Shown piece by piece: positions 8,414 through 64,000 of a stretch of DNA of 64,000 bases (the stretch's first letter is position 1; each line of letters begins with the position of its first letter). The position numbers and the translations under genes were made by a program. This stretch comes from an uncultured Chloroflexia bacterium (GTDB lineage Bacteria > Chloroflexota > Dehalococcoidia > DSTF01 > WHTK01), in contig CAVQCN010000001.1 in NCBI GenBank assembly GCA_963711035.1, forward strand, positions 1,025,942 through 1,089,941, given 5' to 3'. The notes under the pieces are model-generated. The model made no database searches. It was not told the DNA's origin and was given only the letters and a program-made list of their open reading frames with translations.

Positions 8414-8423
8414 TTAGCCGTAG

Positions 8424-15633: not shown

Positions 15634-15803
15634 GCCGAGACAGCGGCAGTTTCCCGAACGCGGTCTCGCACGAGGCCGCGTTTCCCTTTGAAGTTGAAGG
15701 CTTTGTTGTAGGTGGATGTCAGCGCAAACGATGGGTCGCCGGTCGGTATCCGACAGGCTTCTTCGTCAGTCGTCCTTCGCGCAGCTCGCCGCCACGCTAA
15801 TGG

Positions 15804-16430: not shown

Positions 16431-16497
16431 ATACCTGCAGCATAGAGCAGGAACCGTGAACACGGAACAGGGAGCCAGGATCCGGGGCGCGAAGCCC

Positions 16498-46633: not shown

Positions 46634-47632
46634 TTAGTGGTTGCCGGACACCGTGTCCATGATCAGCCGGGTCACGACGTACGGGTCGATGTTGGCGCAA
46701 GGGCGACGGTCTTCGATGTAGCCCTTGCGGTCGACCTCGACCTGCCATGGGATGCGGACGGATGCGCCGCGGTCGGAGACGCCGTAATTGAACTCTCGGT
46801 ACGAGGCGGTCTCGTGCAGGCCAGTGAGGCGGTCCTCGATGCCGAAGCCGTAGTTTTGGATGTGCAGCTCGTGGCGGCGGCCCAGCGCTTCGGCGGCAGC
46901 GACGTTGGGCTCGTAACTCTCACGCATGGCCTTGTTGGAGAAGTTGGTGTGACAGCCTGCACCATTCCAGTCGCCGCGGACCGGCTTCGGGTCGAGCGTG
47001 GCGGAGATGCCGAACTCCTCGCCGACGCGGTAGAGCAGCCAGCGCGCCAGCCAGAGTTCGTCGCTGACGGCCAGCGCTCCCAGCGGTCCGACCTGAAACT
47101 CCCACTGACCGGGCATGACCTCGGCGTTGATGCCGGAGATGCCGAGTCCGGCGGCCAGGCAGGCAGCGAGGTGCTTTTCGATCATGGGCCGTCCGAAGAC
47201 CTCGTCCGCGCCGACGCCGCAGTAGTAGCCGCCCTGTGGGGCCGGGAAGCCGGCTTCAGGAAAGCCGAGGGGCCGTGAGCCGAAGAATAGGGTGTACTCC
47301 TGCTCCAGGCCGAACCAGTAGTCCTGGTCCTTGTACATTTCCGCGATCTTGGCGCACTCGGCGCGCGTGTTCGTCGGGTGGGGCGTCATATCCACTAGCA
47401 GGACTTCGCAGAGCACCAGCTTGTTGGCGCCGCCGCGGATCGGGTCGGGACAGACGTAAACGGGCTTGAGGACGCAGTCGGAGCGATCGCCAGGGGCCTG
47501 GCTGGTCGACGAACCATCGAAGCCCCAGATGGGCATGTCGGTGTCGCCGTCCTTCATGATCTTGGTCTTGGACCGCAGCTTTGCGGTCGGTTGGGTCCCG
47601 TCAACCCAGATGTACTCAGCCATGTAGGCCAT
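46634..47632 (-). CDS. glnII: Glutamine synthetase type II (eukaryote-like GSII)
   Basis: 332 aa MAYMAEYIWVDGTQPTAKLRSKTKI... GSII catalytic motifs. Confidence 0.85.
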   Translation of the reverse strand: MAYMAEYIWVDGTQPTAKLRSKTKIMKDGDTDMPIWGFDGSSTSQAPGDRSDCVLKPVYVCPDPIRGGANKLVLCEVLLVDMTPHPTNTRAECAKIAEMYKDQDYWFGLEQEYTLFFGSRPLGFPEAGFPAPQGGYYCGVGADEVFGRPMIEKHLAACLAAGLGISGINAEVMPGQWEFQVGPLGALAVSDELWLARWLLYRVGEEFGISATLDPKPVRGDWNGAGCHTNFSNKAMRESYEPNVAAAEALGRRHELHIQNYGFGIEDRLTGLHETASYREFNYGVSDRGASVRIPWQVEVDRKGYIEDRRPCANIDPYVVTRLIMDTVSGNH

Positions 47633-47779
47633 TGGTTTCAGCTCCTCCTGTCGGTCGCACCGATGTGGTTTGTCGCGGGGCTATCACAAGTTTTATACCT
47701 GCACCACTCGTGGGGCGCCAGAGCGAAATGCGCCTCTGACGCCCGGGAAAGGGTGTTGTCATCTAATCTTAAAAATTGG

Positions 47780-48121
47780 TTACAGTGCGTCTTCGCCCCT
47801 CTCGCCCGTACGCACGCGGATCGCCTCGCTCACGGGCGAAACGAAGATCTTGCCGTCGCCGATCGAGCCGGTGCGTGCTGATTCGAGGATCACGGCGATG
47901 ACGCGCTCCGTGTCGGCGTCGCGTACGACGAGCTCGACGCGGCTCTTCGGCAGCATGTCGACCCGGTACTCTTCTCCGCCGCGGCCCGAGTGGACGATGC
48001 CCTTCTGCACGCCGCGGCCCGTGACGTTGACGATGTTGAGGCCGACGAAGCCGGCTGCCGCGAGTGCTTCCTTGACGGTCTCGAGCCGTTCCGGCCGGAC
48101 GATTGCCTCGATCTTGTTCAT
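47780..48121 (-). CDS. glnK: Nitrogen regulatory protein P-II
   Basis: 113 aa MNKIEAIVRPERLETVKEALAAAGFVGLNIVNVTGRGVQKG... T-loop. Confidence 0.9.
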   Translation of the reverse strand: MNKIEAIVRPERLETVKEALAAAGFVGLNIVNVTGRGVQKGIVHSGRGGEEYRVDMLPKSRVELVVRDADTERVIAVILESARTGSIGDGKIFVSPVSEAIRVRTGERGEDAL

Positions 48122-48142
48122 CTGAGGATGGCTCCTTCTGGA

Positions 48143-49447
48143 TTAACCGCGCGCTTCCGACCGCTCGGTGACCGGCACCGGCACGGGCTCTGGGATGACG
48201 GGGATGCCGGCGTATGGCGAGCCGCCGTCGAAGACGTAGGCACGCTCGCCGTGCTGACTGGCGTCGAGGCCGACGAGCTCGTCTTCTTCGCTGACCCGGA
48301 GCCCCATCACGGCGTCGAGCACTTTGAGCAGGATGATCGTAACCACGAACGAGTAAGCCAGCGTCACGCCGATGGCAACCAGTTGTCTGCCCAGTTGCGC
48401 GGCGTCGCCGTAGAAGAGGCCGTTGGCCACGCCGCCCACCGCAGTCGTTGCGAACAGGCCGGTAGCGATGGCGCCCCAGGCACCGCCGACGCCGTGCACG
48501 CCTACGACGTCCAACGAGTCGTCAAGGCCGGCGTGAGCGCGCAGGCGCACAGCAAAGTAACAGATGGCGCCGGCGCCGACGCCGATGATCAGCGCGGGCA
48601 GGGGCTCCACGAAGCCGGAAGCGGGCGTGATCGCTACGAGTCCGGCAACGGCGCCTGCCGCGGCGCCCACGACACTGGGCTTGCCCGTGACGATCCAGCT
48701 CAGCGCCACCCAGGTGCAGAGCGCGGCGCCTGCCGCGACATGGGTGGCGACGAAGGCGCTCGTAGCCAGCGTGCCGGCGGCCAGGGCGCTGCCGGCGTTG
48801 AAGCCGAACCATCCGAACCAGAGCAACCCGGCTCCGACGACGACCATCGTGATGTCGTGGGGTTCCATGGGCTCCCGGCCGTAGCCGTGCCGCTTGCCGT
48901 AGACGATGGCGGCGGCGAGCGCCGCGACGCCCGCGTTGACGTGCACGACGGTGCCGCCGGCGAAGTCGAGGGCGCCGAGGTGGTCGAGGCCGAGGAAGCC
49001 GCCGCCCCAGACCCAGTGTGCCACCGGGTCATAGACGATCGTCGACCACAGAAGCATGAACACGAGGAAGGTGCTGAACTTGGCGCGCTCGGCGAAGGCG
49101 CCGGTGATCAGCGCCGGTGTAATCACCGCGAACATCATCTGGAAGATCATGTACGCCTGGTGCGGCACCGTCGGCGCGTACGGCCCCGGCATCGTGGCCG
49201 AGACGTTCTTCAACCCGATATACGACAGGTCGCCGATGACGCCGCCGACGTCTGGACCGAAGGCCAGCGTGTAGCCGATGAGCACGAACTGCACCGTGAT
49301 AACGCCCAGCATCATGAAGCTGTGCATGATGGTGCCCAACACGTTCTTGCTGCGTGTCAGGCCGCCGTAGAAAAGCGCCAGCCCGGGTGTCATCAGCATG
49401 ACCAGCGCCGATGAGACCAGGAGCCAGGCAACGTCGCCAGAGTCCAT
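48143..49447 (-). CDS. amtB: Ammonium transporter
   Basis: 434 aa, 11-12 TM, Amt signatures (DFAGGTVVH). Confidence 0.92.
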   Translation of the reverse strand: MDSGDVAWLLVSSALVMLMTPGLALFYGGLTRSKNVLGTIMHSFMMLGVITVQFVLIGYTLAFGPDVGGVIGDLSYIGLKNVSATMPGPYAPTVPHQAYMIFQMMFAVITPALITGAFAERAKFSTFLVFMLLWSTIVYDPVAHWVWGGGFLGLDHLGALDFAGGTVVHVNAGVAALAAAIVYGKRHGYGREPMEPHDITMVVVGAGLLWFGWFGFNAGSALAAGTLATSAFVATHVAAGAALCTWVALSWIVTGKPSVVGAAAGAVAGLVAITPASGFVEPLPALIIGVGAGAICYFAVRLRAHAGLDDSLDVVGVHGVGGAWGAIATGLFATTAVGGVANGLFYGDAAQLGRQLVAIGVTLAYSFVVTIILLKVLDAVMGLRVSEEDELVGLDASQHGERAYVFDGGSPYAGIPVIPEPVPVPVTERSEARG

Positions 49448-49543
49448 AGATTCCCCCTCTTCTCGTCAGGCGGATCAGCTCTCCTGGCGCGTGCCCTGCG
49501 CCGGAAGACGGCCTGCGAGATGAGGCGAGGTTAGGGACGGATT

Positions 49544-49559
49544 GTTACAGCCATGTTTC
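49544..49559. promoter_or_regulatory. Candidate GlnR-type box (GTTAC-n6-GTTTC) in the amtB promoter region
   Basis: gttacagccatgtttc, ~95 nt upstream of the amtB start; resembles the actinobacterial gTnAc-n6-GaAAc consensus only loosely. Confidence 0.25.
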
Positions 49560-49605
49560 AGGCTGGTTAAAATTGGCCTAGCGGTAGGTGAATTTCAGAG
49601 ATTTG

Positions 49606-50313
49606 CTAGCCGTCAGAGGGGAAGCGATAGCCGACGTTGCGCACCGTCTCAATGTAGATCGTCGGGCCCGTCTCGATCTTGCTGCGCAGGCGCCGGATGT
49701 GCACGTCGACCGTGCGGGCGCCGCCGAAGTACTCATAGCCCCAGACGCGGTTGAGCAGGGCCTCGCGGGTGAAGACCTTGCCGCGGTTGGTCATAAGGAA
49801 GCGCAGCAGCTCGAACTCTTTGAACGTAAGGTTGACGGGCTGCTCCGCAACGAACACCTTGTAGTTCGCCAGGTCGACAACGAGCTGGCCGCTGCGCAGC
49901 ATGTTTGCGGAGTCGATGCCGGTATGGCGCCAGATGGCGCGCCGCAGCCGCAGGAGCAACTCGTCTGAGGAGATCGGCATCGTCAGGAAGTCGTCCAGTG
50001 GCCAGGCAGGGTCGATGCCCGTCATCTGGTCGGCGCGGACGAGCAGCAACAGGGGCGCTTTCGCGGACCGCAGCGGAGACTCGATAATGCGACGAGTCTC
50101 GTCCAGGTTCGCGCCGGCCTCAACGATGATGGCATCGTAATCCGGGCTGGTGAGTCCCTCTTCGGCGCGATCCGGCTCGAGGGTCAAAACCTCGATGTCG
50201 AAAGCTGAAAGGTCACGGCGGATTGCCGCCGTGCCTTCCGTCTGGTAGACAAGAAGCACTTGTTGCATGTCAAGGAGTATAGCGACCGGCACGCTAGGGT
50301 CATTAACACGCAA
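49606..50313 (-). CDS. OmpR/PhoB-family response regulator with atypical receiver domain, GlnR-like orphan
   Basis: C-terminal winged helix ...TFKEFELLRFLMTNRGKVFTREALLNRVWGYEYFGGARTVDVHIRRLRSKI; receiver region lacks a typical phospho-acceptor context; lies between amtB and glnA. Confidence 0.7.
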   Translation of the reverse strand: MRVNDPSVPVAILLDMQQVLLVYQTEGTAAIRRDLSAFDIEVLTLEPDRAEEGLTSPDYDAIIVEAGANLDETRRIIESPLRSAKAPLLLLVRADQMTGIDPAWPLDDFLTMPISSDELLLRLRRAIWRHTGIDSANMLRSGQLVVDLANYKVFVAEQPVNLTFKEFELLRFLMTNRGKVFTREALLNRVWGYEYFGGARTVDVHIRRLRSKIETGPTIYIETVRNVGYRFPSDG

Positions 50314-50383
50314 GTAATGGTTTGAATCTGAGGGGTGTCTTCAGATCCGTCTTGTAACCAAAAGTTAACCAAGTTCTCCAGGG

Positions 50384-51793
50384 ATGCGCGGAAAGGCGCT
50401 GGCTATGATGAATAACGATATGACTGCAGATGAAAGCCGTGAATTTGTCCTGCAGCAATGCCGCCAGCAGGACGTCAAGTTCATTCGGCTCTGGTTCACA
50501 GACACGCTCGGCTCCCTGAAGAGCTTTGCGATTACCTTTGAGGAGCTCGAAGGAGCGCTGGAGGAGGGCGTGGGCTTCGATGGCGGCGCCATCGAAGGTT
50601 TTGCCCGCGCCGGCGAGAGCGACATGAACGCCATCCCGGACGCGGCGACCTTTCAGCTGCTGCCGTGGCGCCCGCGCGAGCGGCGGGTGGCGCGCATGTT
50701 CTGCGACATCCATCTGCCGGACGGCTCGCCCTTCCCGGGCGACCCGCGCTACGTCCTCAAGCGCAGCCTGCAGCGCGCCGCGGCGCTAGGCTTCACGTTC
50801 TACGTCGGCCCGGAAGTGGAGTACTTCTACTTCCGGGAAGGCGACAGCAGCAGGCCGGAGCCGCTCGACCACGGCGGCTACTTCGACCTGACTCCCCTCG
50901 ACGCGGCCAGCGATCTGCGGCGCGAGACCGTGCTCACGCTGGAGGAGATGGGCATCGGCGTCGAGTCCAGCCACCACGAGGTGGCGCCGTCGCAGCACGA
51001 GGTCGACCTGCGCTATACGGACGCGCTGACGATGGCGGACAACCTGATGACGACACGTCTCGTCGTCAAGGAAGTGGCGATGGCCGCCGGCGTCTACGCG
51101 ACCTTCATGCCCAAGCCGCTCGCCAACGAGAACGGCTCCGGCATGCATTGCCACATGTCCCTGTTCCGCGGTGAGCAGAACGCCTTCTTTGACGAGAACG
51201 ACCCGTTGCACCTCTCGGCCGTAGCGCGCGGCTTCCTGGCCGGCCTGCTGCGGCACTCGCGGGAGATCACCCTGATCACGAACCAGTGGGTGAACTCCTA
51301 CAAGCGCCTCATCCCCGGCTTCGAGGCGCCGGTGCGCGTCGCCTGGAACCGCCGCGGCGCGACCGTGGCGCCGCCTCTGGTGGGCCCGAAGGAGCAGCCC
51401 GGCGGCCGCATGCCCGGCGATCTGCTGCGCGTGCCCGACTACCGGCCGGGTCGCGAGACTGCATCTCGCGTCGAGTACCGGGCGCCGGACGCGGCCTGCA
51501 ACCCGTACCTCGCGTTCGCCGCGATGCTGGCGGCCGGTCTCGAGGGTATCGAGAAAGAGTATCCGCTGCCACCGCCGCGTGACGTCCGCGACGAGGGTCA
51601 GATGGAGGACGCGCCGACCCTGCCCGGCAGCCTCTACGAGGCGCTGCTGGAGACGGAAAACAGCGTCCTGGTGCGGGAGTGTATGGGCGAGCACGTCTTC
51701 GAGAGCCTGATGGCCTCGAAGCGCATCGAATGGGAGAGCTACCGCTCGCACATTACCGACTTCGAACTGGGCCGCTACCTGCCGATCCTGTGA
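50384..51793 (+). CDS. glnA: Glutamine synthetase (GlnA family, type I-like)
   Basis: 469-aa track ORF; FIRLWFTDTLGSLKSFAI...GFDGGAIEGFA; true start is probably an internal Met (MNNDM...). Confidence 0.9.
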   Translation: MRGKALAMMNNDMTADESREFVLQQCRQQDVKFIRLWFTDTLGSLKSFAITFEELEGALEEGVGFDGGAIEGFARAGESDMNAIPDAATFQLLPWRPRERRVARMFCDIHLPDGSPFPGDPRYVLKRSLQRAAALGFTFYVGPEVEYFYFREGDSSRPEPLDHGGYFDLTPLDAASDLRRETVLTLEEMGIGVESSHHEVAPSQHEVDLRYTDALTMADNLMTTRLVVKEVAMAAGVYATFMPKPLANENGSGMHCHMSLFRGEQNAFFDENDPLHLSAVARGFLAGLLRHSREITLITNQWVNSYKRLIPGFEAPVRVAWNRRGATVAPPLVGPKEQPGGRMPGDLLRVPDYRPGRETASRVEYRAPDAACNPYLAFAAMLAAGLEGIEKEYPLPPPRDVRDEGQMEDAPTLPGSLYEALLETENSVLVRECMGEHVFESLMASKRIEWESYRSHITDFELGRYLPIL

Positions 51794-54035: not shown

Positions 54036-54818
54036 ATGTTCCAAGATACCGACCCCGAGGAATCCGAAGAGTCCAACGGACTCTTCGGAGGCCGACCTCC
54101 TTTGCCGATCATCGGTGGTGTCATTGCCGCCGTCGTCATCGGTCTCATCCTGGTAGTCGTCGTCTTTAGCAGCGGCGGCGGCAACGACAACAACTCCAAC
54201 GCTCTTGCCACGATCACGCCGACGAGCAAGGCCCAGAGCGGTGGATTGGCGACCGGCGGTATCCCGTCGCCGCAGGGCACCCTTGATTTGACCCGCCCGA
54301 CGGTCACCGGCGCGCCCAGCCTGACCGGCGTCGGCGCCGACGATCGTATCGTCATCCCCGCCTTCAACATCAACGCGCCTCTTACTTTCAAGACGGTGGG
54401 CGCAGACGGCGAGATGCCCAACCCGGACGGACCCGATGACGTTGCCTACTACAACTTCTCGGCCTGGCCCGGTCTGGGCGGTGCTCCCGGCCAGGGCGGC
54501 AACTCCATCTTTGCCGGTCACGTCGACTCGGGTTTCAAGGCCTGCGACCACGGCACGGTCCCGCCGCCTTGCGAGGCTGTCTTCTGGGACGTGAGTAAGC
54601 TGAAGGTTGGCGACACCATCGAGATCCACGTTAGCGGGCAGGTCTACACCTACTCCGTAACCTCGAACCAGGCAGTGGATGCGAACGGCGCCGATTGGAC
54701 TAGCATCGTTTCCGCCACGGCGCAGGAGAGCATCACGCTGATCACCTGTGGTGGCGATTTCAATACCCAGACTCACGAGTACAATCACCGGCAAGTCGTG
54801 ACGGCGGTCAGGGTTTAA
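54036..54818 (+). CDS. Sortase family transpeptidase (class E/F-like), N-terminal TM anchor
   Basis: 260 aa; TM IIGGVIAAVVIGLILVVVVF; ...RIVIPAFNINAPL...NSIFAGHVD...ITLITCGG...HEYNHRQVVTAVRV (His, Cys, Arg catalytic triad contexts). Confidence 0.85.
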   Translation: MFQDTDPEESEESNGLFGGRPPLPIIGGVIAAVVIGLILVVVVFSSGGGNDNNSNALATITPTSKAQSGGLATGGIPSPQGTLDLTRPTVTGAPSLTGVGADDRIVIPAFNINAPLTFKTVGADGEMPNPDGPDDVAYYNFSAWPGLGGAPGQGGNSIFAGHVDSGFKACDHGTVPPPCEAVFWDVSKLKVGDTIEIHVSGQVYTYSVTSNQAVDANGADWTSIVSATAQESITLITCGGDFNTQTHEYNHRQVVTAVRV

Positions 54819-54882
54819 CCTCGTGCCCGCCTCCGGCGTTAGTTAGGATGGTGGCCCGGTCAGAGGCCCAGGGAGGGAACGT

Positions 54883-55755
54883 GTGAATCTGCCGGCATTC
54901 TTGGAAGGTGTTCCGCGGTGGATGCTTCTCGCCGTGATTCCGATTACGGCGTTCGTGGTGGCTGTGGGCGTGAGCTTTGGCATGAGCGGCAGCGACAACT
55001 CGACCACGAGTGGCAGCTTGAAGCCGGACGTCGGCGCGCTGGCGGAGCTGACTACGCCCACGCCTCTTCCGACGGCGACGGTCGTTCCCACCGCTACGGT
55101 GATTCCCGTTCGCACGAGTTGTGATGAGATTGCCGGAACCCCCTACCGCTCCCAGATTGAGCGCCAGTGGTACCTGGACAACTGCACCGACACCGCGGGT
55201 GCCTCCACCGGCGGCGGCGGCACCGGCGGCACCGGCGGAAGCATTGACTACTCGACGCAGGGACCGGTGAACGCCGGCGGCGGCGAGTTCGCGCTCGGTG
55301 ACGAGCTGATCATTCCGTCCATTGGCCTCGATGCGACCGTGTATGGCGACAAGGTCGGCGGCGACGGCACGATGCCGAACCCGGTTGGCTACTTCTACGC
55401 CGTGTGGTACGACTTCAGCGCCTTCCCTGGTCTCGGCGGATACGTCGGCAACGGCAACACGGTTCTTGCCGGCCACGTCGACTGCGCTCGCTGCCACAAC
55501 GGCTCGGCCGGCGCGGCGGTCTTCTGGAACGTCCGCAACCTCTCCCCCGGTGCGAGCATCCAGTACCGGACGTCGGACGGCGTGGTGCACAACTACGTGG
55601 TAACCGCGTCGCAGGACTACACGGACGCTTCGAACTGGGGAGGAATCCTTTCGTCCGGCGCTGCGGACCTGACGCTGATCACGTGTAACGGCGTCTTTGA
55701 TCCGTCTGCGCATGAGTACAACCTGCGCCACGTCGTCTACGCCAAAGCGGTGTAG
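54883..55755 (+). CDS. Sortase family transpeptidase (tandem paralog)
   Basis: 290 aa; TM LLAVIPITAFVVAVGVSF; ...LIIPSIGLDATV...NTVLAGHVD...LTLITCNG...HEYNLRHVVYAKAV. Confidence 0.85.
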   Translation: MNLPAFLEGVPRWMLLAVIPITAFVVAVGVSFGMSGSDNSTTSGSLKPDVGALAELTTPTPLPTATVVPTATVIPVRTSCDEIAGTPYRSQIERQWYLDNCTDTAGASTGGGGTGGTGGSIDYSTQGPVNAGGGEFALGDELIIPSIGLDATVYGDKVGGDGTMPNPVGYFYAVWYDFSAFPGLGGYVGNGNTVLAGHVDCARCHNGSAGAAVFWNVRNLSPGASIQYRTSDGVVHNYVVTASQDYTDASNWGGILSSGAADLTLITCNGVFDPSAHEYNLRHVVYAKAV

Positions 55756-55777
55756 ACGCCTCGAAGTGAATGAGTAA

Positions 55778-55812
55778 CGGCCCGCTCGAGTGAGTGGGCC
55801 GTTTGCGTTGCT
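55778..55812. terminator. Hairpin between convergent sortase and comE-like genes (ggccc...gggcc followed by gtttgcgtt)
   Basis: cggcccgctcgagtgagtgggccgtttgcgtt; plausible bidirectional terminator. Confidence 0.35.
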
Positions 55813-55829
55813 GAAGGTGCTGGCGCTCA

Positions 55830-56391
55830 GCGGTGCGACGAGTTGGCTGCGCAGCGTGCCGGCTGCATCCTGTGGCCGGACGCGTGGAGTCGATTCGCCG
55901 TAGTCCTCGGGGTCGACCTCGAGTACGATCAGGGCCGGGCCACCCGACGAGAGGATGCCGGGCAGCCGCTCACGCAGCACGCCGATGTCGTCGAAGCTCT
56001 CCGACTGGTGATAGCCGGCACCGCGGCCCAGCGCGGCGAAGTCGACCTTGTCGCCGCCGGGCGTGATCTGCTTGCCTGAGGTCTCGTAGACGCGATTGAC
56101 GAGGACGAAATGGTAGTAGTTGGCCGGCTCGGCGCCGGCCACGCTGGCGAGGCCGCCCAGCTGCATGAGCAGGCTGCCATCCCCATCGATGACGTAGATG
56201 CGGCGGTCGGGCTGCGCCAGCGCCAGGCCCAGGCCCAACGACGCGGCGCCGCCCATGCAGCCGATGCAGTCGATGTGGCGCTCGCCGGCGGCGCCGGACT
56301 CTGCCCAGGGCAGGACGGAGCGCATCGTCGTAACGCTGACGCCGTCGCCTTTGGTGGCGGCGATGAGCTCGATTGCCTCGTCACGCTTCAT
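55830..56391 (-). CDS. Sulfopyruvate/phosphonopyruvate decarboxylase beta-subunit-like (TPP-binding C-terminal domain); 3' end uncertain
   Basis: Internal ATG 56389-56391 gives MKRDEAIELIAATKGDGVSVTTMRSVLPW...IDCIGCMGGAASLGLGLALAQPDRRIYVIDGDGSLLMQLGGLASV...; the track frame has no stop until 54808 and runs antisense through the sortase gene. Confidence 0.6.
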
Positions 56392-56404
56392 GCTCTGGTC
56401 CCGT

Positions 56405-56920
56405 CTAGGAGGTTGGCGCGCCGAGCAGCACAATCGTAGGACAGCGCTCCTCCCGGCTCTGGATGAAGGCCTCGCGCAGGAAATGGACGTCCTCTGGACC
56501 GTCGATCAAGTAGCAGGGCACGCCGAGTGTCTGCATAACCGGCGCGATGAGGCGCGTAGCGCTGTTCTGGCGCTCGTCGATGGGCAGATTGACGTCGCGG
56601 CCGAACTGGCCGACGACCATGCAGGTCGGCACGCGCATGTCCATGGCGATGCCGCGCAAGGCGTTCATGCCAGCAAAGACGCCGACGTTCTGGATCATGA
56701 CGAGGGGGTTGGCGCCGCCCATCCAGAGACCGGCGTTGGTGCAGACGGCCTCGTGCTCGGTGCTGAGGGTGACGAGGGTGAAGCGCGGGTCTTCGGTTAC
56801 AGCCTGCAGGAGGGTGCGCTGGTGCGTGTCGGGCACATTGACGATGTGGGTCACACCCAGCGCTACGATCTCGTCGTGCAGCAGAGCGGCCGGTACCGAC
56901 TGGACTACGGGAGTGGTCAT
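56405..56920 (-). CDS. Sulfopyruvate/phosphonopyruvate decarboxylase alpha-subunit-like (TPP enzyme N-terminal domain)
   Basis: Internal ATG gives MTTPVVQSVPAALLHDEIVALGVTHIVNVPDTHQRTLLQAV...CTNAGLWMGGANPLVMIQNVGVFAGMNALRG...; immediately upstream of the beta-like gene. Confidence 0.7.
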   Translation of the reverse strand: MTTPVVQSVPAALLHDEIVALGVTHIVNVPDTHQRTLLQAVTEDPRFTLVTLSTEHEAVCTNAGLWMGGANPLVMIQNVGVFAGMNALRGIAMDMRVPTCMVVGQFGRDVNLPIDERQNSATRLIAPVMQTLGVPCYLIDGPEDVHFLREAFIQSREERCPTIVLLGAPTS

Positions 56921-57008
56921 AAAGCTCCTCTGAGGCTGACTGAGTCGAGGGACATTATAGACGGGCCGCGGCTTGCCGCCCACGTCGCCAGATTGCAGAA
57001 TGACGAGT

Positions 57009-57100
57009 GGAGAGGTGGCAGAGTGGTTGAATGCGGCGGTCTCGAAAACCGTTATACGGGTTCTCTCGTATCCAGGGTTCGAATCCCTGCCTCTCCGCCA
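57009..57100 (+). tRNA. tRNA-Ser (anticodon CGA), type II with long variable arm, CCA encoded
   Basis: GGAGAGG acceptor 5' arm / CCTCTCC 3' arm + G + CCA; D-loop AGTGGTTGAA; anticodon loop CT-CGA-AA; variable stem-loop CGTTATACGGGTTCTCTCGTATC; T-arm CAGGGTTCGAATCCCTG. Confidence 0.9.
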
Positions 57101-57139
57101 TTCCGATTCTAAAACTTAGGTAAAGCTAGCATCGAAAGA

Positions 57140-57161
57140 GCCGCCCGAGAGGCGGCTTTTT
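57140..57161 (+). terminator. Rho-independent terminator after tRNA-Ser
   Basis: gccgcc-cgaga-ggcggc followed by ttttt. Confidence 0.6.
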
Positions 57162-57259
57162 CGTCGTTTGACAGCAGTTCTGACAGCAACCTGGGCGGAC
57201 GTTGGCAACTGTAGATGGATTTTTGGGCCGATTCGGGTCGCTTCGAAATATTCGCGGGG

Positions 57260-58265
57260 CTAGGCTTCGGCGAAAAGGACCTGCATCTTCTTCGCAGCGT
57301 CAGCATGGATGGCTGGCGTGACGTGGGAGTAGGTGTCTAGCGTCAGGGTGACTGTGCTGTGGCCGAGCAGCTCCTGGACGATCTTGGGGTTCTCGCCGCG
57401 GGCCAGGTAAAGGGTGGCTGCGGTGTGCCGCAGGTCGTGCACACGAACGCGCGGCAGGCCAGCGCGGCCGAGGATTCGGGTGAGGCAGGGCCCAGGCGAG
57501 CTTCTCTTCGATCTGCTGGCGTCGGTGCTCCCGCAGCGCCTGGGCGGTCCCTTCCGGGAAGTAAACGGTTCTCCGGCTCTTGGTCGTCTTTGGGCCAACG
57601 AAGACGAGGCCGACACCCTTTTGGCGTTGCAGAGCGCGCCGGACAATGAGGCGATTCTGGTCCAAGTCGAACTCGTCCCAGCGTAACCCAGTGGCTTCAC
57701 CAACACGGAGGCCGGTGGAGGCGAGGAGCACCCAGAGGGCATGCAGACGATGATCCTGTGTCGCCGGAAAGAAGCGCCTGACTTCGTCTTCGCTGAGAGT
57801 GTGCATCTCGTTGCGTTCGGGTCGAGGCACGCTCACCGCTTCGGAGGGATTTCGACCGATGGAGCCCCACTGCACCGCTCTCTCGAGAGCTTTGTGCAGA
57901 ACAGTGTGGACTTGGACCACAGAGCGTCGGCTGAGGCCACGTTCGATTAGATCGGCGTATGCTCGTTCGATTGCGGCCGGGGTGAGTGTGCTCAGACGAA
58001 TGCGGCCAATCAACGGCTTCAGGCGCCGAACGTTGAGGTCGTAGGACTCGTAGGTTCGCGGCCGTACGCTGCCTTCTTTAGCCCCGAGAAGTCTTCCGCG
58101 AGCATGAAGGCCACAAGACTGACCCACATGATCCATTCGTCCGGGAAGAACGGCGTCCGGGCTGGGCATCAATCGCTCGGTCGAGCGATAGCCCGTACGC
58201 CGTCCAAGGCTAGATTCGCCTATCCAAACGGCTCTCTTCGAGTGCCGATTGGACGCTTCGCCCAA
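57260..58265 (-). pseudogene. Tyrosine-type integrase, disrupted: N-terminal/core in 57300..58265, catalytic C-terminus in a different frame (57260..57742)
   Basis: Frame A: ...LRWDEFDLDQNRLIVRRALQRQKGVGLVFVGPKTTKSRRTVYFPEGTAQALREHRRQQIEEKLAW then junk; frame B: ...LGRAGLPRVRVHDLRHTAATLYLARGENPKIVQELLGHSTVTLTLDTYSHV...*. About 25-30 aa normally found between these segments are missing. Confidence 0.8.
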
Positions 58266-58344
58266 AACTCTGTGACGACCGACTTGCTATTTCAGCCCAC
58301 CAGGGCGATGTATGTCGTCGCCTTTGAAAGGAGGGCTGAGAAAC

Positions 58345-58596
58345 ATGGCGATTGAGAATCGCAACCTCGAAGCCGGATTTCGCCTGGTGGCGACCTACAA
58401 GAAGAACCAACTGGCCAGGTTGAGACTGAGGTCGCGGCTCGCTTTGGCAGCGACTACTCCGGCTGCTACGAGACGCACTTCACGGCCGCATGGCCGGGAG
58501 AAGACTGCGACGGCCCTTTCAGCCGCTGCTCGGAACACGGCCCCGGTTGCCTGGTCGAGGTCATACCTGTGCGATCGATGCAGCTACGGCGAGTGA
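58345..58596 (+). CDS. Hypothetical small Arg/Ala-rich protein in the low-GC island stretch
   Basis: Internal ATG of track ORF 58312..58596 with AGGAGG 9 nt upstream: MAIENRNLEAGFRLVATYKKNQLARLRLRS...CDRCSYGE. Confidence 0.3.
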   Translation: MAIENRNLEAGFRLVATYKKNQLARLRLRSRLALAATTPAATRRTSRPHGREKTATALSAAARNTAPVAWSRSYLCDRCSYGE

Positions 58597-58822
58597 TCAT
58601 CCAGTCAGGCGCAGTTAGCGAATTCGGCTGAACGGCGCGGCCCGGCAAAGAACCTCAGCGCCTCCTCAGCTTGCTCTACCATATGTACCTCTGCGGCGAG
58701 ACCAGAGTCGCACCGCCCGTCTTCTCTTGAGCTCCACATCACGGCCGTCGTATTTGAATAGGTAGATCAAAACTGGAAGAGCCCAAGAGCGCCGCTACAT
58801 ATTTTCCGGAGGTTGTTAACCG

Positions 58823-61345
58823 ATGAATGGGCAATCCAGCGCCGACCTGCCCGAGGCTCCCGAACCGAACCCTGAATTGACTGCTGACGCGAACGGCGAT
58901 CTAAAATCCTTGCCCCTGGCGGAAGTGGAGCAGAAATTGAGGTCGTCGCCGGATGGCCTCAGTCAAGCCGAGGCGCAGAAACGGCTGGCCCAGTACGGGC
59001 CTAACGAGATCGAAGAAACAAAAGCCAATCCGTTTCTCAAATTCCTCACCTATTTCTGGGGCCCCATTCCCTGGATGATCGAAGCCGCCGTAATCCTTTC
59101 GGCCGTCGCCCGGCACTGGCCTGACTTCGGCATCATCCTCCTGCTTCTGGTTGCCAACGCTGTGGTTGGGTTCTGGGAAGAACACCAGGCCGGCAACGCT
59201 ATCGAGGCCCTCAAGGCCAATCTGGCGATTAAGGCCCGGGTGAAAAGGGACGGGAAGTGGATAAATCCCGCGGCGCGCGAGTTGGTGCCGGGCGATGTCA
59301 TTCGCCTGCGTCTCGGCGACATTGTGCCGGCGGATGCCCGCCTGCTGGATGGCGACCCGGTGGAAGTAGACCAGTCGGCCCTGACCGGAGAGTCGCTGCC
59401 CGCAGAGCGCAAATCGGGCGACGCGGTGTTTTCCGGTTCGATCATCCGCCAGGGCGAAATCGGGGCACTGGTTTATGCCACCGGCGGTAAGACCTATTTC
59501 GGCAAGACGGCGTCGCTTGTGCAGGAGGCACACACGATCAGCCACTTTCAACGCGCGGTGCTGAAGATCGGCAATTACCTGATCATCCTGGCCGTAGCGC
59601 TGGTGGCGGTGATCATTGCGGTCTCGGTCCTGCGCGGCGACCCCATCTTGACCACGTTGCAGTTCTCCCTGGTGCTGACCGTGGCCGCGATTCCAGTGGC
59701 GATGCCGACCGTGTTGTCGGTGACCATGGCGGTCGGCGCGCGCCTTCTCGCCGGGAAGCAGGCGATTGTGAGCCGGTTGGTCGCGATCGAGGAGCTGGCG
59801 GGCGTGGACATACTGTGCGCGGACAAGACCGGCACCCTGACCCAGAACAAGCTGACGTTGGGTGATCCGTTTAGCGTGAATGATGGCGCCGTCGAGCAAG
59901 TCATCCTTAACGGAGCGCTGGCCTCACGCGCGGACAACAACGACACCATCGATCTAGCCGTCCTGGGCGGACTCAAAGACCAGGAGGCCCTGCAGAGCTA
60001 TCAGGTGGTCCATTTCCAGCCATTCGACCCCGTGCACAAGCGCACCGAAGCCACCGTCAAAGGCCAGGACGGCCAGACATTCAAAGTAACGAAGGGCGCA
60101 CCGCAGGTCATTCTGGAATTGTCCGCCAACACCCGCGAAGTGCAGCCCACCGTCGACAAGGCCGTCAACGAATTTGCGGCTCGCGGCTTTCGTTCACTCG
60201 GTGTGGCGCGAGCCGATGGCGACGACCAATGGCAGTTTGTCGGCGTGTTGCCCCTGTTCGATCCGCCTCGCGACGACGCCAGGGCGACCATCGCCACCGC
60301 GCTATCAATGGGCGTGAAGATCAAGATGGTGACGGGAGATGCGCTCGCCATCGCCAAGGAGACAGCCCAAAAGCTGGGTATGGGCGCCAACATCCTCGAT
60401 GCGACGAGCCTGGGCGACTCGAAAAGGCAGGAGACCCCAGAAGTGGCGGAATCCATCGAGAATGCCGACGGCTTCGCCCAGGTGTTCCCCGAGCACAAAT
60501 TCCACATCGTGGCTGTTCTCCAGAAACGGGGCCACATCGTCGGCATGACAGGCGACGGGGTGAATGATGCCCCGGCGCTAAAGAAGGCCGACTGCGGCAT
60601 CGCCGTTTCAAGCGCGACGGACGCGGCGCGCGCGGCGGCTTCAATCGTACTGACGACGGCCGGTTTGGCGGTGATCATTGACGCGATCAAGGAGAGCCGC
60701 CGTATCTTCCAGCGGATGAACAGCTACGCGATCTACCGCATCGCCGAGACCCTGCGTGTGCTCCTGTTCATGACCTTGGCGATTCTGATTTTCAATTTCT
60801 ATCCGGTTACAGCGGTCATGATCGTGATGCTGGCGTTGCTCAATGACGGAGCAATCCTGTCGATAGCCTATGACAACGTTCATTACAAGAATCAGCCCGA
60901 GGCTTGGAACATGCCGCTAGTGCTCGGGATCGCCACGGTCCTGGGCGTCATCGGGGTTATCTCGGCATTCGGTTTGTTCTATCTGGGTGAGCGGGTCTTT
61001 GATCTCGACCGTTCGCACGTTCAGACGTTGATGTATCTGAAGCTGTCCGTGGCGGGACATCTGACGATCTTTCTTACGCGCACGCGTGGCCCCTTTTGGT
61101 CCATACGCCCCGCACGGATTCTCTGGATAGCGGTACTCGGTACCCAAGCTATAGCGACCTTGATTGCGGTCTATGGCTTGTTCATGACACCCCTAGGCTG
61201 GGGCTGGGCCCTGTTCGTTTGGGGCTACGCTCTGGCGTGGTTTCTGGTAAATGACCGCGTGAAATTGCTAGCGTACCGGATTCTTGATCCCGCCAAAGCC
61301 AACATAAGGCCGGATTTGACGTCACAGCTCACCATGCCGGCCTAA
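58823..61345 (+). CDS. P-type ATPase, plasma-membrane H+-ATPase-like (type IIIA)
   Basis: 840 aa; TGES, CADKTGTLTQNKLTL, MVTGDALAIAKETAQKLGM, GDGVNDAPALKKADCGIAV, 10 TM; GGAGG RBS; A/T-ending codons (aaa, gaa, att) unlike the flanking core genes. Confidence 0.92.
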   Translation: MNGQSSADLPEAPEPNPELTADANGDLKSLPLAEVEQKLRSSPDGLSQAEAQKRLAQYGPNEIEETKANPFLKFLTYFWGPIPWMIEAAVILSAVARHWPDFGIILLLLVANAVVGFWEEHQAGNAIEALKANLAIKARVKRDGKWINPAARELVPGDVIRLRLGDIVPADARLLDGDPVEVDQSALTGESLPAERKSGDAVFSGSIIRQGEIGALVYATGGKTYFGKTASLVQEAHTISHFQRAVLKIGNYLIILAVALVAVIIAVSVLRGDPILTTLQFSLVLTVAAIPVAMPTVLSVTMAVGARLLAGKQAIVSRLVAIEELAGVDILCADKTGTLTQNKLTLGDPFSVNDGAVEQVILNGALASRADNNDTIDLAVLGGLKDQEALQSYQVVHFQPFDPVHKRTEATVKGQDGQTFKVTKGAPQVILELSANTREVQPTVDKAVNEFAARGFRSLGVARADGDDQWQFVGVLPLFDPPRDDARATIATALSMGVKIKMVTGDALAIAKETAQKLGMGANILDATSLGDSKRQETPEVAESIENADGFAQVFPEHKFHIVAVLQKRGHIVGMTGDGVNDAPALKKADCGIAVSSATDAARAAASIVLTTAGLAVIIDAIKESRRIFQRMNSYAIYRIAETLRVLLFMTLAILIFNFYPVTAVMIVMLALLNDGAILSIAYDNVHYKNQPEAWNMPLVLGIATVLGVIGVISAFGLFYLGERVFDLDRSHVQTLMYLKLSVAGHLTIFLTRTRGPFWSIRPARILWIAVLGTQAIATLIAVYGLFMTPLGWGWALFVWGYALAWFLVNDRVKLLAYRILDPAKANIRPDLTSQLTMPA

Positions 61346-61659
61346 GAAACGTAGGAGACAGGCCTCACGCTTGGCGTCGCGGTTGGGTAATTCCTCCAGC
61401 TCTGTTTCGTCCGACTCCGGTAGAGTCAGCCCTTCTGTCTTCTGACGAGGGCCGGGTTTCAAGCGGGCTGCGCTCCCAGCCGTTCACTGGCAAAAGATAC
61501 CAGGCAGCACCAGATGCCCGGAGTTGGCCAGCCATGGTTTCGGCGACGAAGTAGCGCCCAGCGAACTCTTCGTGTGACAGCTCCCGCCCGACCGTATCAA
61601 CGACGCATTGAAGAATGCATTGCGAGCGGAAAGGCTCACGGCGCCGACTTGGGCCATAA

Positions 61660-61911
61660 CTAGGTGTCGCTTGGCTGGGATGATCGGTCCGGTGCGGCGG
61701 CGCAAACAACGCCGAGGATGTGAACCATGTTCCCATCCGAGAACACGATCACGTGCCGGATTTCCTTCACCTCCAAGCTTCTCTTTCCCTGAGAGCCGGA
61801 TTCAATATCCAGGATTTCCCCAACGTGCATTGCCAGGAAGGGCGTAGAAGACTCGTAGCTTGCCAGCAGCGCATCAGTGCCCTCCTCGTAGACCTCCAGC
61901 TTGTAGTTCAT
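61660..61911 (-). CDS. Hypothetical 83-aa protein
   Basis: MNYKLEVYEEGTDALLASYESSTPFLAMHVGEILDIESGSQGKRSLEVKEIRHVIVFSDG...; no family recognised. Confidence 0.35.
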   Translation of the reverse strand: MNYKLEVYEEGTDALLASYESSTPFLAMHVGEILDIESGSQGKRSLEVKEIRHVIVFSDGNMVHILGVVCAAAPDRSSQPSDT

Positions 61912-62034
61912 CGCCTTCTCCTGTTTAGCTTCACAGGTGCGCAGCCAGACAACTACCCAGAACGGGTCGCCGACGAATCGTCGCCTGTGATTCTCTGCGA
62001 GAGTTAAGTGCGGTTCCTGAGCTGCACGGGCTTC

Positions 62035-62349
62035 TCAAGGCAGGTGATGGTGCAGATGAAAGCCAACGTGGCCTGCGTCTGGCCGATGGATCGAAGAATC
62101 CCGGATCGCCGCGCGTGTGAGCCTCAGGATGGCCGTACCATTTTCCTCGCGCTCGACCGTATCCGAGTTGAGCCACCAATCGGGCGCAAACTGGATGTCG
62201 AGCTTGAAGCACGAGTCACTTACTTCCTCGACCCGGCCCAATTCAAAGCCGTCCAAACTGTAAACCAGCGTGCCAATCGGTGGCGTGGTCGATGATGACA
62301 CCATGCCTGTTTCCTTTCCACGATCGAGTCGAGGGGTGAAGCTCGGCAC
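62035..62349 (-). CDS. Hypothetical small protein, possibly PRC-barrel-like; start may be at the internal Met (MVSSS...)
   Basis: ...PIGTLVYSLDGFELGRVEEVSDSCFKLDIQFAPDWWLNSDTVEREENGTAILRLTRAAI pattern resembles small PRC-barrel/DUF2171 proteins. Confidence 0.4.
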   Translation of the reverse strand: MPSFTPRLDRGKETGMVSSSTTPPIGTLVYSLDGFELGRVEEVSDSCFKLDIQFAPDWWLNSDTVEREENGTAILRLTRAAIRDSSIHRPDAGHVGFHLHHHLP

Positions 62350-62398
62350 CTCTGCAGCGAGCTAGTTCAAGCCATGGTCAGACCGGAAGCGATCAGCC

Positions 62399-63100
62399 TC
62401 ACTGGCGGTTGAGATTTTGGACTTCGAGGTTCTCTCTGACTTCGACTACACCCGGCACGCGGCTGGCAACTGCTTCGGCGTTTTCGGCGTCTTCAAGGCT
62501 GGATACGCTGCCGCGCAATTCTGCTATCCCGCCCTCGACGCTGACCTGGACCTGTAGATCGGTGGTGGCGGCGTCCTCTCTAAGCTCCCGCCGGATGGCT
62601 GCGGCAATCGAACCGTCACTGTAGCGCTCGCCCAGAGTCGATGATTCGACAACGGCCGAATCGTCTGAACTGAACTCGAAGCCGCCAAGGATCTCACCCT
62701 CAGGCGTCAGGACAGGGTCGGTCGGCGGGACGTAGACGTCGTCGCCTTCGGAGATGTCCTCGTCGCTGGTGAAGCCACTCGGACCCTCAGCGCCAAGAGT
62801 AGTGCTGACGATCACCTGATCGCCGAAATCGCCAGGCTCCAGGGTCTGGTTTTTGGACGCCTCCGTTGTTTCGCTGCCAAGAGCCCCCGATGGAACGTCC
62901 ATCAGCTCCAGGTTGTCCACGATGCGCTTGCTCGGCGCGATGGCAGACACGATATCCATCGCCGCCTGGCGTTGCTCTTCCGAGCCGATCAGGCCGCTGA
63001 GAACAATTGCCGTCGCCGTCTCCTCGACAGCTGCATAGACCCCGGCTTGCTCTGCAAGTTGCTGTTCGATGTCGTTGCTTGTTCCAGCCATCAATGACAC
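62399..63100 (-). CDS. BON-domain protein (OsmY-like, two BON repeats)
   Basis: ...AAMDIVSAIAPSKRIVDNLEL... and ...VQVSVEGGIAELRGSVSSLEDAENAEAVASRVPGVVEVRENLEV BON signatures separated by an acidic linker. Confidence 0.8.
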   Translation of the reverse strand: MSLMAGTSNDIEQQLAEQAGVYAAVEETATAIVLSGLIGSEEQRQAAMDIVSAIAPSKRIVDNLELMDVPSGALGSETTEASKNQTLEPGDFGDQVIVSTTLGAEGPSGFTSDEDISEGDDVYVPPTDPVLTPEGEILGGFEFSSDDSAVVESSTLGERYSDGSIAAAIRRELREDAATTDLQVQVSVEGGIAELRGSVSSLEDAENAEAVASRVPGVVEVRENLEVQNLNRQ

Positions 63101-63104
63101 TCCC

Positions 63105-63635
63105 TTACGCCGGTCGGAAGACCAGCACTGGCACCACGCCGGCCGCGATCACGGCTCCGGTGACGCTGCCGTGAATGAGCCCGCTGAGCCCGGAGCGGCC
63201 GTGAGTCGACATTGCCACGAGGTCAATGTTGCGCTGTTTGACGAAGTCGAGGATTACGTTTGCCGGCTTTTCGTCTAGGATGACCTCAGTTTGCACTTGG
63301 AGCCCGGCCGACCTGAGTGCTTCGGCCTTGTCAGCCAGGTAGTCTTTGGCCTCGTCTTCGACTCTCGCAAAGGTCTGACCGCGAAATTCATGCTCACCGG
63401 GCCGAGGCTCCACGGGCCTCTGCACCGCGCCTACTCCTCCGAACTGGGATACAGCGCTGCCCGCCTGCTCGAATCGCATCTCCGCGACGGCCTCAGACGA
63501 AGCGGCGCCGGTGAAAGGCGGCTCGATCACGAGCAACAGGAAGACGTTTGCGCCACTATCCTTTGCTATCGCTGCCGCTTTCGGAAGGATGGCCTCGGAC
63601 TCCGAAGAACCGTCGAGCGTCGCCAAGATATTCAT
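63105..63635 (-). CDS. Universal stress protein (UspA family)
   Basis: 176 aa MNILATLDGSSESEAILPKAAAIA...IDLVAMSTHGRSGLSGLIHGSVTGAVIAAGVVPVLVF. Confidence 0.85.
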   Translation of the reverse strand: MNILATLDGSSESEAILPKAAAIAKDSGANVFLLLVIEPPFTGAASSEAVAEMRFEQAGSAVSQFGGVGAVQRPVEPRPGEHEFRGQTFARVEDEAKDYLADKAEALRSAGLQVQTEVILDEKPANVILDFVKQRNIDLVAMSTHGRSGLSGLIHGSVTGAVIAAGVVPVLVFRPA

Positions 63636-64000
63636 TCCACCCTGCCTTCATACACGTTTTGGTCTCTGCACCATGGAGTGCTGCCCCATGGATCGGGGTT
63701 GTCATTGCAGCAAGGAGCACTCCTGCTGCATTAACTATGACCTCTTTGCTCAGCAACCGGCAGGGCCGGATGACTGGTTCTGGGAGGGCATGCTGGCCTG
63801 ACAGCCTTTGGTGGCTGCTCCCAAGATGAGCGAACTCTGCTCTCGGGTTCTCGCGAGCAGGGCCCTGGTCGGAATCATTCCAAGCCTGGACAGACGGCCG
63901 AACGGCTCTCTTTCTTACCAACTTATAGCACTGGGGAGGCAGCTCTCGCGCCAACTATTCTGACGTCAGGTTGGATGGAAGGAACCATAAGAACTGCACT

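Follow-up and report, generated by a model that had tools for sequence, protein, structure and literature searches.

A probable mosaic of acquired DNA, immobilised beside tRNA-Ser(CGA) in a Chloroflexota chromosome

When the remnant of an integrase gene lies beside a tRNA gene and is followed by a run of stress-related genes, it is reasonable to ask whether the integrase brought those genes to the site or whether they arrived by a separate route. This question is raised by the right-hand end of a 64,000-nucleotide (nt) stretch of contig CAVQCN010000001.1 (the window), where a tRNA-Ser(CGA) gene is followed by a decayed tyrosine integrase gene (int), a gene for a P-type ATPase of the plasma-membrane proton pump kind, and genes for a BON-domain protein and a universal stress protein (Usp). 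A preliminary description, made from the window sequence, treated the stress genes as cargo of this integrase. The comparisons reported here do not support that assignment, given that the backbone genes of the integrase's family are absent and that homology to intact relatives stops inside the 5′ region of int. Rather, we consider it likely that the region is an immobilised mosaic of acquired DNA, located at a hot spot for integration, tRNA-Ser(CGA), on a Chloroflexota (“Dehalococcoidia”-type) chromosome. It carries the marks by which islands are recognised, namely a position directly 3′ of a tRNA gene, a recombinase gene at the tRNA-proximal end, atypical composition and codon usage, and content that differs at the same site in a relative (locus L009).

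Composition and variable content at the tRNA-Ser(CGA) site

The tRNA-Ser(CGA) gene, which is the integration target, occupies positions 57009-57100 of the plus strand. It was identified by ARAGORN and matches Rfam family RF00005 with 59.6 bits, is intact, and encodes its own CCA end. Both programs agree that it is the sole tRNA gene in the window. An Rfam scan of 56.5-64 kb revealed nothing besides this tRNA, and thus no leader or riboswitch upstream of the pump gene.

DNA to the right of the tRNA is compositionally foreign to the 57 kb of host DNA on its left. The G+C content is 0.650 for positions 1-57000 versus 0.599 for positions 57101-64000, a value about 6.5 standard deviations below the host mean (0.650, with a standard deviation of 0.008 and a range of 0.632-0.667 in host windows of equal size). 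Two measures of oligonucleotide usage also place the region outside the host range, with a dinucleotide delta* of 72.6 versus a host maximum of 51.3, and a tetranucleotide correlation of 0.763 versus a host minimum of 0.919. When the ATPase gene is removed, the region is still an outlier (0.748 versus a host minimum of 0.785). Host genes, including those for membrane proteins, have a G+C content at third codon positions (GC3) of 0.78-0.93 in their coding frames. To the right of int, the corresponding values are 0.76 for the ATPase, 0.72 for Usp, 0.69 for the BON protein, and 0.66-0.73 for the small open reading frames (ORFs), with an overall range of 0.64-0.76. The int remnant itself is higher, at 0.69-0.82. 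Thus, the non-uniform composition and codon usage proposed in the preliminary description are borne out by G+C, GC3, delta*, and tetranucleotides alike. However, the change does not begin near position 58270 as was suggested there, but at the tRNA (0.607 for 57001-58000), and low G+C then continues unbroken through the int remnant to position 65355, as judged with the help of an overlapping public contig described below.

An alternative explanation for these values is that the region is native, such that the stress genes descended vertically, their low GC3 reflects a selective or expression regime of their own, and only the integrase fragment is foreign. This is not without precedent, because the comparable lxa stress locus of Burkholderia cenocepacia is compositionally native (PMC3721108). 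In addition, the closest pump homologues (93% amino acid identity) reside on contigs that look like Chloroflexota, with LigXa_C and Meth_synt_2 neighbours as in locus L006. Nevertheless, we find this explanation very unlikely. The gap in GC3 between host genes and the pump and stress genes, and oligonucleotide usage that remains aberrant even without the pump gene, both argue against it, as do the content of the same site in a relative and the distribution of the pump gene, both of which are described below.

Relatives of the host are few. Of the proteins related to the product of the adjacent host TPP-decarboxylase gene, one is 92% identical and the remainder are at most 65% identical, and the host lineage is poorly sampled. 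Labels on the orthologues of this gene, and on the relatives of the integrase, are Dehalococcoidia or Chloroflexota. The contig that encodes the 92% relative (L008) has the same order of TPP-decarboxylase and tRNA-Ser genes, with 84% nt identity, and ends within the tRNA, whose partial sequence differs from that of the window at three positions. The exact window tRNA has no match in metagenome contigs, but a degenerate tRNA pattern retrieved one locus (L009) whose tRNA is identical at 89 of 92 positions. Its left flank resembles that of the window, with a glutamine synthetase gene (80% nt identity), sortase genes, and then the tRNA. Synteny of the left flank with both relatives therefore extends through the tRNA inclusive.

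The right-hand side of L009 is entirely different. There, the tRNA is followed by an intact and dissimilar integrase gene (401 amino acids, about 34% identical), a PrimPol/DUF3987 primase gene, an HTH_3 repressor-like gene, and a second integrase gene, whereas the pump, BON, and Usp genes are absent. G+C is also lower on this side, and no att repeat is found within the 5.9 kb of the locus. Because L009 holds another element at the same tRNA, we conclude that tRNA-Ser(CGA) is a hot spot for integration whose content varies. The absence of these genes from L009 also argues against a native origin. Conserved synteny of the pump and stress genes beside tRNA-Ser, which the preliminary description had named as evidence against an island, is likewise not observed, in that the site differs in L009 and the nearest pump genes occur in other gene contexts. 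In L009 (positions 1-5884), the second integrase gene lies at the end of the contig.

Similarity between the window and L009 persists for a short distance past the tRNA. The trailer TTCCGATTCTAAAACTTAGG (57101-57122, plus strand) has about 15 of 20 identities to L009, and similarity is lost beyond it. This trailer is possibly part of an att core, or else a tRNA trailer typical of the lineage. A related sequence, TTCG(N)ATCTA, is located 3′ of tRNA-Leu in two loci with intact relatives of the window integrase (L014 and L010). More generally, the 15-20 nt directly 3′ of class II tRNAs are alike across loci, including those whose integrases differ (window 57101-57122, L009 5863-5884, L014 about 4125-4140, and L010 about 12775-12790), with the variants TTCCGATTCTAAAAC, TTTTGATTCTGAAAC, AATTCGTATCTA, and ATTTCGAATCTAAA. 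This likeness, too, could be due to a shared att core or to a lineage-typical trailer.

The integrase remnant and the end of its element

The tyrosine integrase pseudogene (57260-58265, minus strand) matches the Pfam family PF00589 (Phage_integrase) in two overlapping frames, with profile positions 3-82 in the ORF at 57300-58265 and positions 101-169 in the ORF at 57260-57742. A distance of 160 nt separates its stop codon (57260-57262) from the end of the tRNA gene, as originally described. For mapping of its decay we used the closest intact relative found, a protein of 373 amino acids that is 78% identical (P0242, encoded by locus L013). Residues 74-270 of this protein align to positions 58088-57498 at 82% identity, and residues 298-373 align to positions 57490-57263 at 93% identity but in a different frame. 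The 27 intervening residues (271-297) are missing, in good agreement with the preliminary estimate of an out-of-frame gap of 25-30 residues. In the nucleotide alignment, the window has only 5 nt where the intact gene has 78, and this net deletion of 73-74 nt at about 57491-57497 therefore accounts for the frameshift. The first 70 or so codons are also degraded. There, the protein alignment is weak and gapped, no DNA similarity is detectable, and no ATG start is present; nt homology to the intact gene ends at position 58073, within int.

The catalytic R, K, HxxR, H, and Y motifs can still be read but are split across the two frames. No continuous catalytic ORF (R-K-H-R-H/W-Y) is present, so the pseudogene belongs to PF00589 by descent. 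Judged from these lesions, the integrase is non-functional, and because of this the region could not excise on its own, which makes the earlier view that it is fixed in place a reasonable one. Viral contigs yielded no match to the tRNA 3′ end and no close relatives of the integrase or the ATPase, and thus nothing points to a prophage.

Intact relatives of the integrase (P0242-P0264, 63-78% identical, about 372 amino acids) occur at loci L010-L015, which carry the Dehalococcoidia/Chloroflexota labels mentioned above and in which int is part of an integrative element. Where the end of such an element is visible, the adjacent gene is tRNA-Leu(CAA). Alignment of four elements defined a motif, CCAACGTCC-N6-GGTTGCTGTCA-N3-CTGCTGTCA, at the element end (57169-57205, minus strand in the window). 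In L012, L014, and L015, segments that lie between int and either the tRNA or the end of the contig are 84-89% identical to it. The form common to the window and the intact relatives is ACGTCC..GTTGCTGTCA-N3-CTGCTGTCA, also found as ACGTCC..GGTTGCTGTCA-N3-CTGCTGTCA, and next to it comes a hairpin directed towards the tRNA. Within the motif are two direct repeats of TGCTGTCA, at 57169-57176 and 57181-57188, which read TGACAGCA on the plus strand. Elsewhere in 65 kb, TGACAGCA occurs at only two places. We infer that the TGCTGTCA repeats are putative arm-type binding sites of the integrase.

In the window, the hairpin was read directly from the sequence as AGCCGCC-CGAGA-GGCGGCT followed by a T-run (57139-57161, plus strand). 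It is terminator-like, faces the tRNA, and has counterparts at the equivalent place, between arm motif and tRNA, in L014 and L015. A consensus scan did not list it. Its arrangement suggests that it is probably a terminator furnished to the tRNA gene by the element. Because the motif and the hairpin are both shared with intact relatives, the junction between tRNA and int is a genuine element end.

This finding also bears on the possibility that the contig is an assembly chimera, in which DNA from two organisms was joined at or near the tRNA or the integrase to create an artificial step in G+C. tRNA genes and integrase genes are known points of misassembly, and a short contig from a relative (L008) does end inside the tRNA. 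However, the order of tRNA, hairpin, arm motif, and int is the same in L010, L014, and L015, which indicates that the junction is biological, and the junction between int and the ATPase gene holds no repeat. Moreover, two public metagenome contigs (L001 and L002) reproduce positions 62.8-64.0 kb at 99.7-100% identity, yet do not span the junction. We therefore rank a chimera as the least probable of the explanations considered, and a highly improbable one.

In the intact elements, whose integrases are 63-69% identical to that of the window, the DNA upstream of int encodes an overlapping ORF, an HTH_17 gene that we read as an excisionase gene, a DUF3854 or AAA_25 replication protein, and a ParB-methylase. 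None of the corresponding backbone genes (overlapping ORF, HTH_17, or primase/replication gene) is present to the right of the int remnant in the window. Because these genes are missing, what is now seen is probably a mosaic, and any link between the integrase and the stress genes is conjectural.

It might be proposed that the region is nonetheless a single large island, in which the pump and stress genes are cargo of the integrase and the distal att site (attR) lies further to the right. For example, low G+C is continuous from the tRNA to position 65355, int sits at the tRNA-proximal end as would be expected, and this integrase family does carry cargo, in the form of small genes between int and the tRNA in L010 and L014. 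However, the overlapping ORF and the HTH_17 and replication genes are found in all intact relatives and are absent here, homology to L013 breaks off at 58073 while still inside int, and the GC3 of the remnant exceeds that of the supposed cargo. Furthermore, the closest relatives of the pump gene are not associated with this integrase. A single island is thus possible but in our view doubtful. These same four observations lead us to favour instead a separate acquisition of the stress block, or its replacement at the hot spot, for which the case is about evenly balanced.

Decayed tyrosine integrases that anchor islands are known at tRNA-Ser, selC, and leuX sites in enterobacteria. The window resembles such islands in its insertion at a tRNA 3′ end, convergent int, atypical composition, variable site content among relatives, and dead integrase. 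It differs in its lack of detected flanking direct repeats, in its host, an uncultured member of the Chloroflexota, and in its missing element backbone. The Chloroflexota elements with integrases of about 372 amino acids (L010-L015) are alike in having an integrase that is 63-78% identical and the same end motif and hairpin beside a class II tRNA. Unlike the window, they are intact, are targeted to tRNA-Leu(CAA) where this is visible, and retain the HTH_17, DUF3854/AAA_25, and ParB-methylase genes, and none has a type IIIA (P3A) pump, BON, or Usp gene.

One metagenome sample (JGI 3300038421) holds both the closest host relative, L008, and the closest intact integrase gene, L013 (78% amino acid and 78-84% nt identity). 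These are two contigs of about 1.3 kb, each of which ends just short of the sequence of the other. An intact copy of the element may be present at the same tRNA in that population.

The proton pump, its relatives, and the neighbouring genes

A spacer of 557 nt with no recognisable gene (58266-58822) separates the int remnant from the pump gene. Its ORF at 58312-58596 is not coding-like (G+C at second codon positions, GC2, of 0.62) and belongs to no family, and the spacer has no homology to the regions upstream of the ATPase genes in the two loci with the closest pump copies (L003 and L004). A promoter scan found nothing. A GGAGG sequence is located 10 nt ahead of the ATPase start codon.

The pump gene (58823-61345, plus strand) encodes 840 amino acids. 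Its product scores 1065.7 bits against the type IIIA proton pump model TIGR01647 (ATPase-IIIA_H, cut-off 615.5), in keeping with the type IIIA signatures noted in the preliminary description. The choice that was left there between a proton and a magnesium pump can be narrowed to the former type, because the score against the IIIB magnesium model is 341.7 bits and under the cut-off of 610.75. Among structures in the PDB, AHA2 (5ksd) is the best match (1e-212) and is followed by Pma1, with MgtA far behind.

Alignment with AHA2 and Pma1/PMA1 (7vh5 and 1mhs) covers the full length (1e-212 to 1e-190) and reveals several shared features. These include the DKTGT motif with D334, a TGES motif at position 188, and N112, R645, and D675, which align with the proton-path residues N106, R655, and D684 of AHA2. 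Based on these matches, we regard the protein as a bona fide P3A member. It ends about 27 residues past the last membrane helix and therefore lacks a C-terminal regulatory (R) domain. In this absence of an autoinhibitory R domain and in its short termini it differs from AHA2 and Pma1, as a 2023 review has described for prokaryotic P3A ATPases (PMC10654040). It also differs in belonging to a bacterial clade borne on islands or plasmids, whose members are 74-87% identical across phyla.

The same review describes prokaryotic P3A ATPases as mainly archaeal (PMC10654040), and the preliminary description regarded such pumps as uncommon in bacteria. The present data contradict the latter view for the clade to which this pump belongs. 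More than 100 further proteins are 83-87% identical to the window pump, including some at about 85% from metagenome-assembled genomes labelled Gloeobacterales, Desulfobaccales, Thermoanaerobaculaceae, and Sedimentisphaerales. Genes for proteins that are 74-81% identical are carried by complete plasmids of Caballeronia (81%), Sphingomonas, Rhodococcus (78%), Acidiphilium, and Frondihabitans. Because 85% identity across phyla and plasmid-borne copies exclude vertical descent, the pump clade is horizontally mobile. This distribution is a further argument against a native origin of the block. It also contrasts with that of the adjacent host gene, for which a single relative reaches 92% and no other exceeds 65%.

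The closest copies (93% amino acid and 91% nt identity) occur on L003 and L004, a pair of contigs from a single assembly, between genes for XFP (phosphoketolase) and TreT. These contigs share the ATPase coding sequence alone with the window, and not its flanks. With each other, they share a 6.4-kb XFP-ATPase-TreT block at 92.5% nt identity, whereas another gene common to both is 68% identical, a disparity that likewise does not fit vertical inheritance. We considered whether the window, L003, and L004 share a conserved multi-gene cassette, and rejected this idea because no homologues of the accessory genes are present in the latter two.

On L003 (positions 1-17000 and 15581-17604), the pump gene lies in a block with a G+C content of 0.59 that spans at least 17 kb and also includes genes for PRC, CsbD, a Crp-type regulator, PGM, XFP, and TreT. 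This block ends at an IS3-family transposase gene and tRNA-Val(CAC), beyond which G+C returns to 0.66. It has the appearance of another stress island bounded by a tRNA, here in the genome of a relative, although a search beside this tRNA-Val revealed no remnant of an integrase.

Certain gene types recur beside the pump gene, including those for Usp, CsbD, PRC, phosphoketolase, acetate kinase, PPK2, and trehalose metabolism. For example, the Rhodococcus plasmid L016 (NZ_CP046101.1) carries neighbouring genes for phosphoketolase, aldolase, beta-phosphoglucomutase, a GH65 phosphorylase, and Usp, and the Caballeronia plasmid L017 (NZ_CP049320.1) carries genes for phosphotransacetylase, acetate kinase, polyphosphate-ADP phosphotransferase, and integrases. 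Across plasmids of different phyla and the two contigs L003 and L004, the pump gene is thus found beside genes for phosphoketolase, acetate kinase/phosphotransacetylase, polyphosphate-ADP phosphotransferase, enzymes of the trehalose/maltose phosphorylase type, and Usp. We take this recurrence as a hint of a module that can be transferred and that links proton pumping to ATP made without respiration.

In the window, the pump gene is convergent with an apparent operon of four minus-strand genes, in the order Usp, BON, DUF2171/PRC-like, and an 83-codon ORF. The Usp and BON assignments of the preliminary description are both upheld by Pfam. The first gene (63105-63635) encodes Usp, which matches PF00582 over residues 2-174 (91.2 bits, cut-off 24, 1e-25). 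An identical protein is encoded on the metagenome contigs L001 and L002, and a search of genome contigs returned only a relative with 26% identity. The second gene (62399-63100) encodes an OsmY-like protein with two BON domains (PF04972, 65.3 bits, cut-off 27, 6e-18, in two stretches), whose linker is acidic and in which no signal peptide is obvious. Against the OsmY equivalog model, for which the cut-off is 174 bits, it scores only 42 bits, and it is therefore counted among BON proteins but not as OsmY itself.

The two small ORFs were both described earlier as PRC-barrel-like, a view that holds for one of them. Neither matches Pfam (E<=10, with PF05239 and PF09939 included) or NCBIfam directly. 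However, an exhaustive phmmer search with the ORF of 104 codons (62035-62349) returned 161 homologues at E<=1e-3, with values down to 2e-34. When this ORF and the best 40 of the 161 homologues were scanned, DUF2171 was found in 18 and PRC in 10 of the 41 sequences. Because its homologues match these families, we classify the 104-residue product as a divergent DUF2171/PRC-like protein. Its real start is likely the ATG at 62304, which would give 89 residues. A profile search of the PDB with the DUF2171-like alignment found no match.

The last ORF (61660-61911) could be assigned to no family and is unrelated to the DUF2171/PRC profile (hhalign probability 0.08%). It is probably a real gene, given that the sequence AGGAGAAGG before its ATG makes a good ribosome-binding site and that its GC3 of 0.73 and GC2 of 0.38 are coding-like. 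Single-sequence AF2 models were too poor for use in both cases, with pLDDT values of 55 for the 83-residue product, which was modelled as all-beta, and 46 for the 104-residue product.

DNA past the end of the window is represented by L001, a public contig of 2.4 kb that is 100% identical to positions 62946-64000 and adds 1355 nt with a G+C content of 0.60. The added DNA encodes a membrane stress protein of the GlsB/YmgE type (Transgly_assoc) and an Ala-rich protein of 216 residues. The latter (L001 22-672, equivalent to 64684-65334) is rich in Ala, Val, and Gly, has loose A-x-x-G-A-I-E-A-x-x-D-V-G repeats, and matches no Pfam family. It might be a stress protein of the LEA-like or phasin-like kind.

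Several features of the host side were also recorded. At the point where its L008 orthologue of 187 residues ends, the gene for the TPP-decarboxylase beta subunit (54808-56433, minus strand, start at about 56391) lacks a stop codon, and its ORF runs about 340 codons further on the strand opposite two sortase genes. This read-through is due either to loss of the stop codon or to an error in the sequence near 55830. The two sortase genes are in tandem at 54036-55755, past a nitrogen-assimilation cluster (46634-51793) that comprises a truncated-looking glutamine synthetase-like gene (332 amino acids), an ammonium transporter gene, a gene for a GlnR-type regulator, and a glutamine synthetase gene. 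The host DNA includes a low-GC patch of 1 kb (0.600 for 12001-13000) with an ORF at 12272-12643 whose G+C content is 0.527.

Origin of the block and its possible function

The observations above can be accommodated by a sequence of three steps. First, comparison with intact relatives shows that an integrative element of a Chloroflexota family inserted at the tRNA 3′ end by tyrosine-integrase recombination. This event left an end typical of the family, consisting of the tRNA, a short trailer, the hairpin, two TGCTGTCA repeats, and a convergent int. Second, the lesions in int show its decay through the deletion of 73-74 nt, the frameshift, and the garbling of its N-terminus, along with loss of the backbone genes. 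Third, the lower-GC block would have become joined to the int remnant by separate acquisition or by replacement at the hot spot, and not as cargo of the integrase.

A number of points weigh against the overall interpretation of an acquired and immobilised mosaic with a stress-related role. No repeat of the tRNA 3′ end, and hence no attR, was found in 57200-65355 when searched as a 25-mer with at most 3 mismatches, as exact matches of at least 11 nt, or as 20-mers with at most 4 mismatches, and for this reason the island is not delimited on the right. A strictly empty site was not seen in any relative examined. The L008 contig stops inside the tRNA, and loci reached through the left-flank TPP-decarboxylase orthologues (L006 and L007, 64% amino acid identity) have no tRNA there. 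The source is probably a metagenome-derived contig. The BON, Usp, GlsB, and Ala-rich proteins and the small ORFs are without homologues in the loci with the closest pumps (L003 and L004). The transport function of prokaryotic P3A pumps was described as undetermined in 2023 (PMC10654040). Finally, boxes of the FNR/CRP type and shared motifs were not found in the intergenic regions, which leaves the idea of a low-oxygen regulon without regulatory support.

The stress-gene content of the region resembles that of the lxa locus and of the DosR regulon (PMC3721108). Like the window, lxa combines Usp with a cation-transporting P-type ATPase, although the comparison of the ATPases is made at the level of P-type enzymes. 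Other neighbourhoods of the pump are also lxa-like in having genes for acetate kinase, phosphotransacetylase, and CRP-family regulators. The lxa locus differs in being compositionally native and in comprising 50 genes, and no Anr/FNR box was found in the window. We therefore offer the likeness as a functional analogy only.

Homology and the recurrent neighbourhoods allow us to propose a function for the region. The pump would expel protons at the expense of ATP hydrolysis, and thereby maintain membrane potential and cytoplasmic pH without respiration, such as under hypoxia, desiccation, acid, or dormancy. Its neighbours (Usp, BON, DUF2171, and GlsB) would act as general stress or dormancy factors.

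We also speculate, more tentatively, that the P3A pump is part of a promiscuous “energy-maintenance” kit that travels on plasmids, on islands, and in cassettes such as XFP-ATPase-TreT. Such a kit would combine the pump and Usp-type proteins with substrate-level ATP production from trehalose, glycogen, or polyphosphate, by means of phosphoketolase, acetate kinase/Pta, and PPK2. If this is true, then dormant, non-respiring cells would be able to keep their membrane potential, and the window would represent one capture of the kit in a Chloroflexota tRNA hot spot.

Every component of the region is of a known kind, including the tRNA island with a dead integrase, the TIGR01647 pump, and the BON, Usp, and DUF2171/PRC-like proteins. 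Pumps of the TIGR01647 type are already named by NCBI in bacterial genomes and plasmids. As an island, the region is therefore routine. For a lineage of Chloroflexota that has been little sampled, it adds a record of a hot spot at tRNA-Ser(CGA) and of an integrase family whose arm motif can be recognised. The pump clade, in turn, is more widespread and more mobile in bacteria than the literature on P-type ATPases suggests (PMC10654040). The proposed function yields a testable hypothesis, namely ATP-driven upkeep of the proton-motive force in dormancy, and the existence of a transferable kit would provide prokaryotic P3A pumps with a physiological role that can be put to the test.

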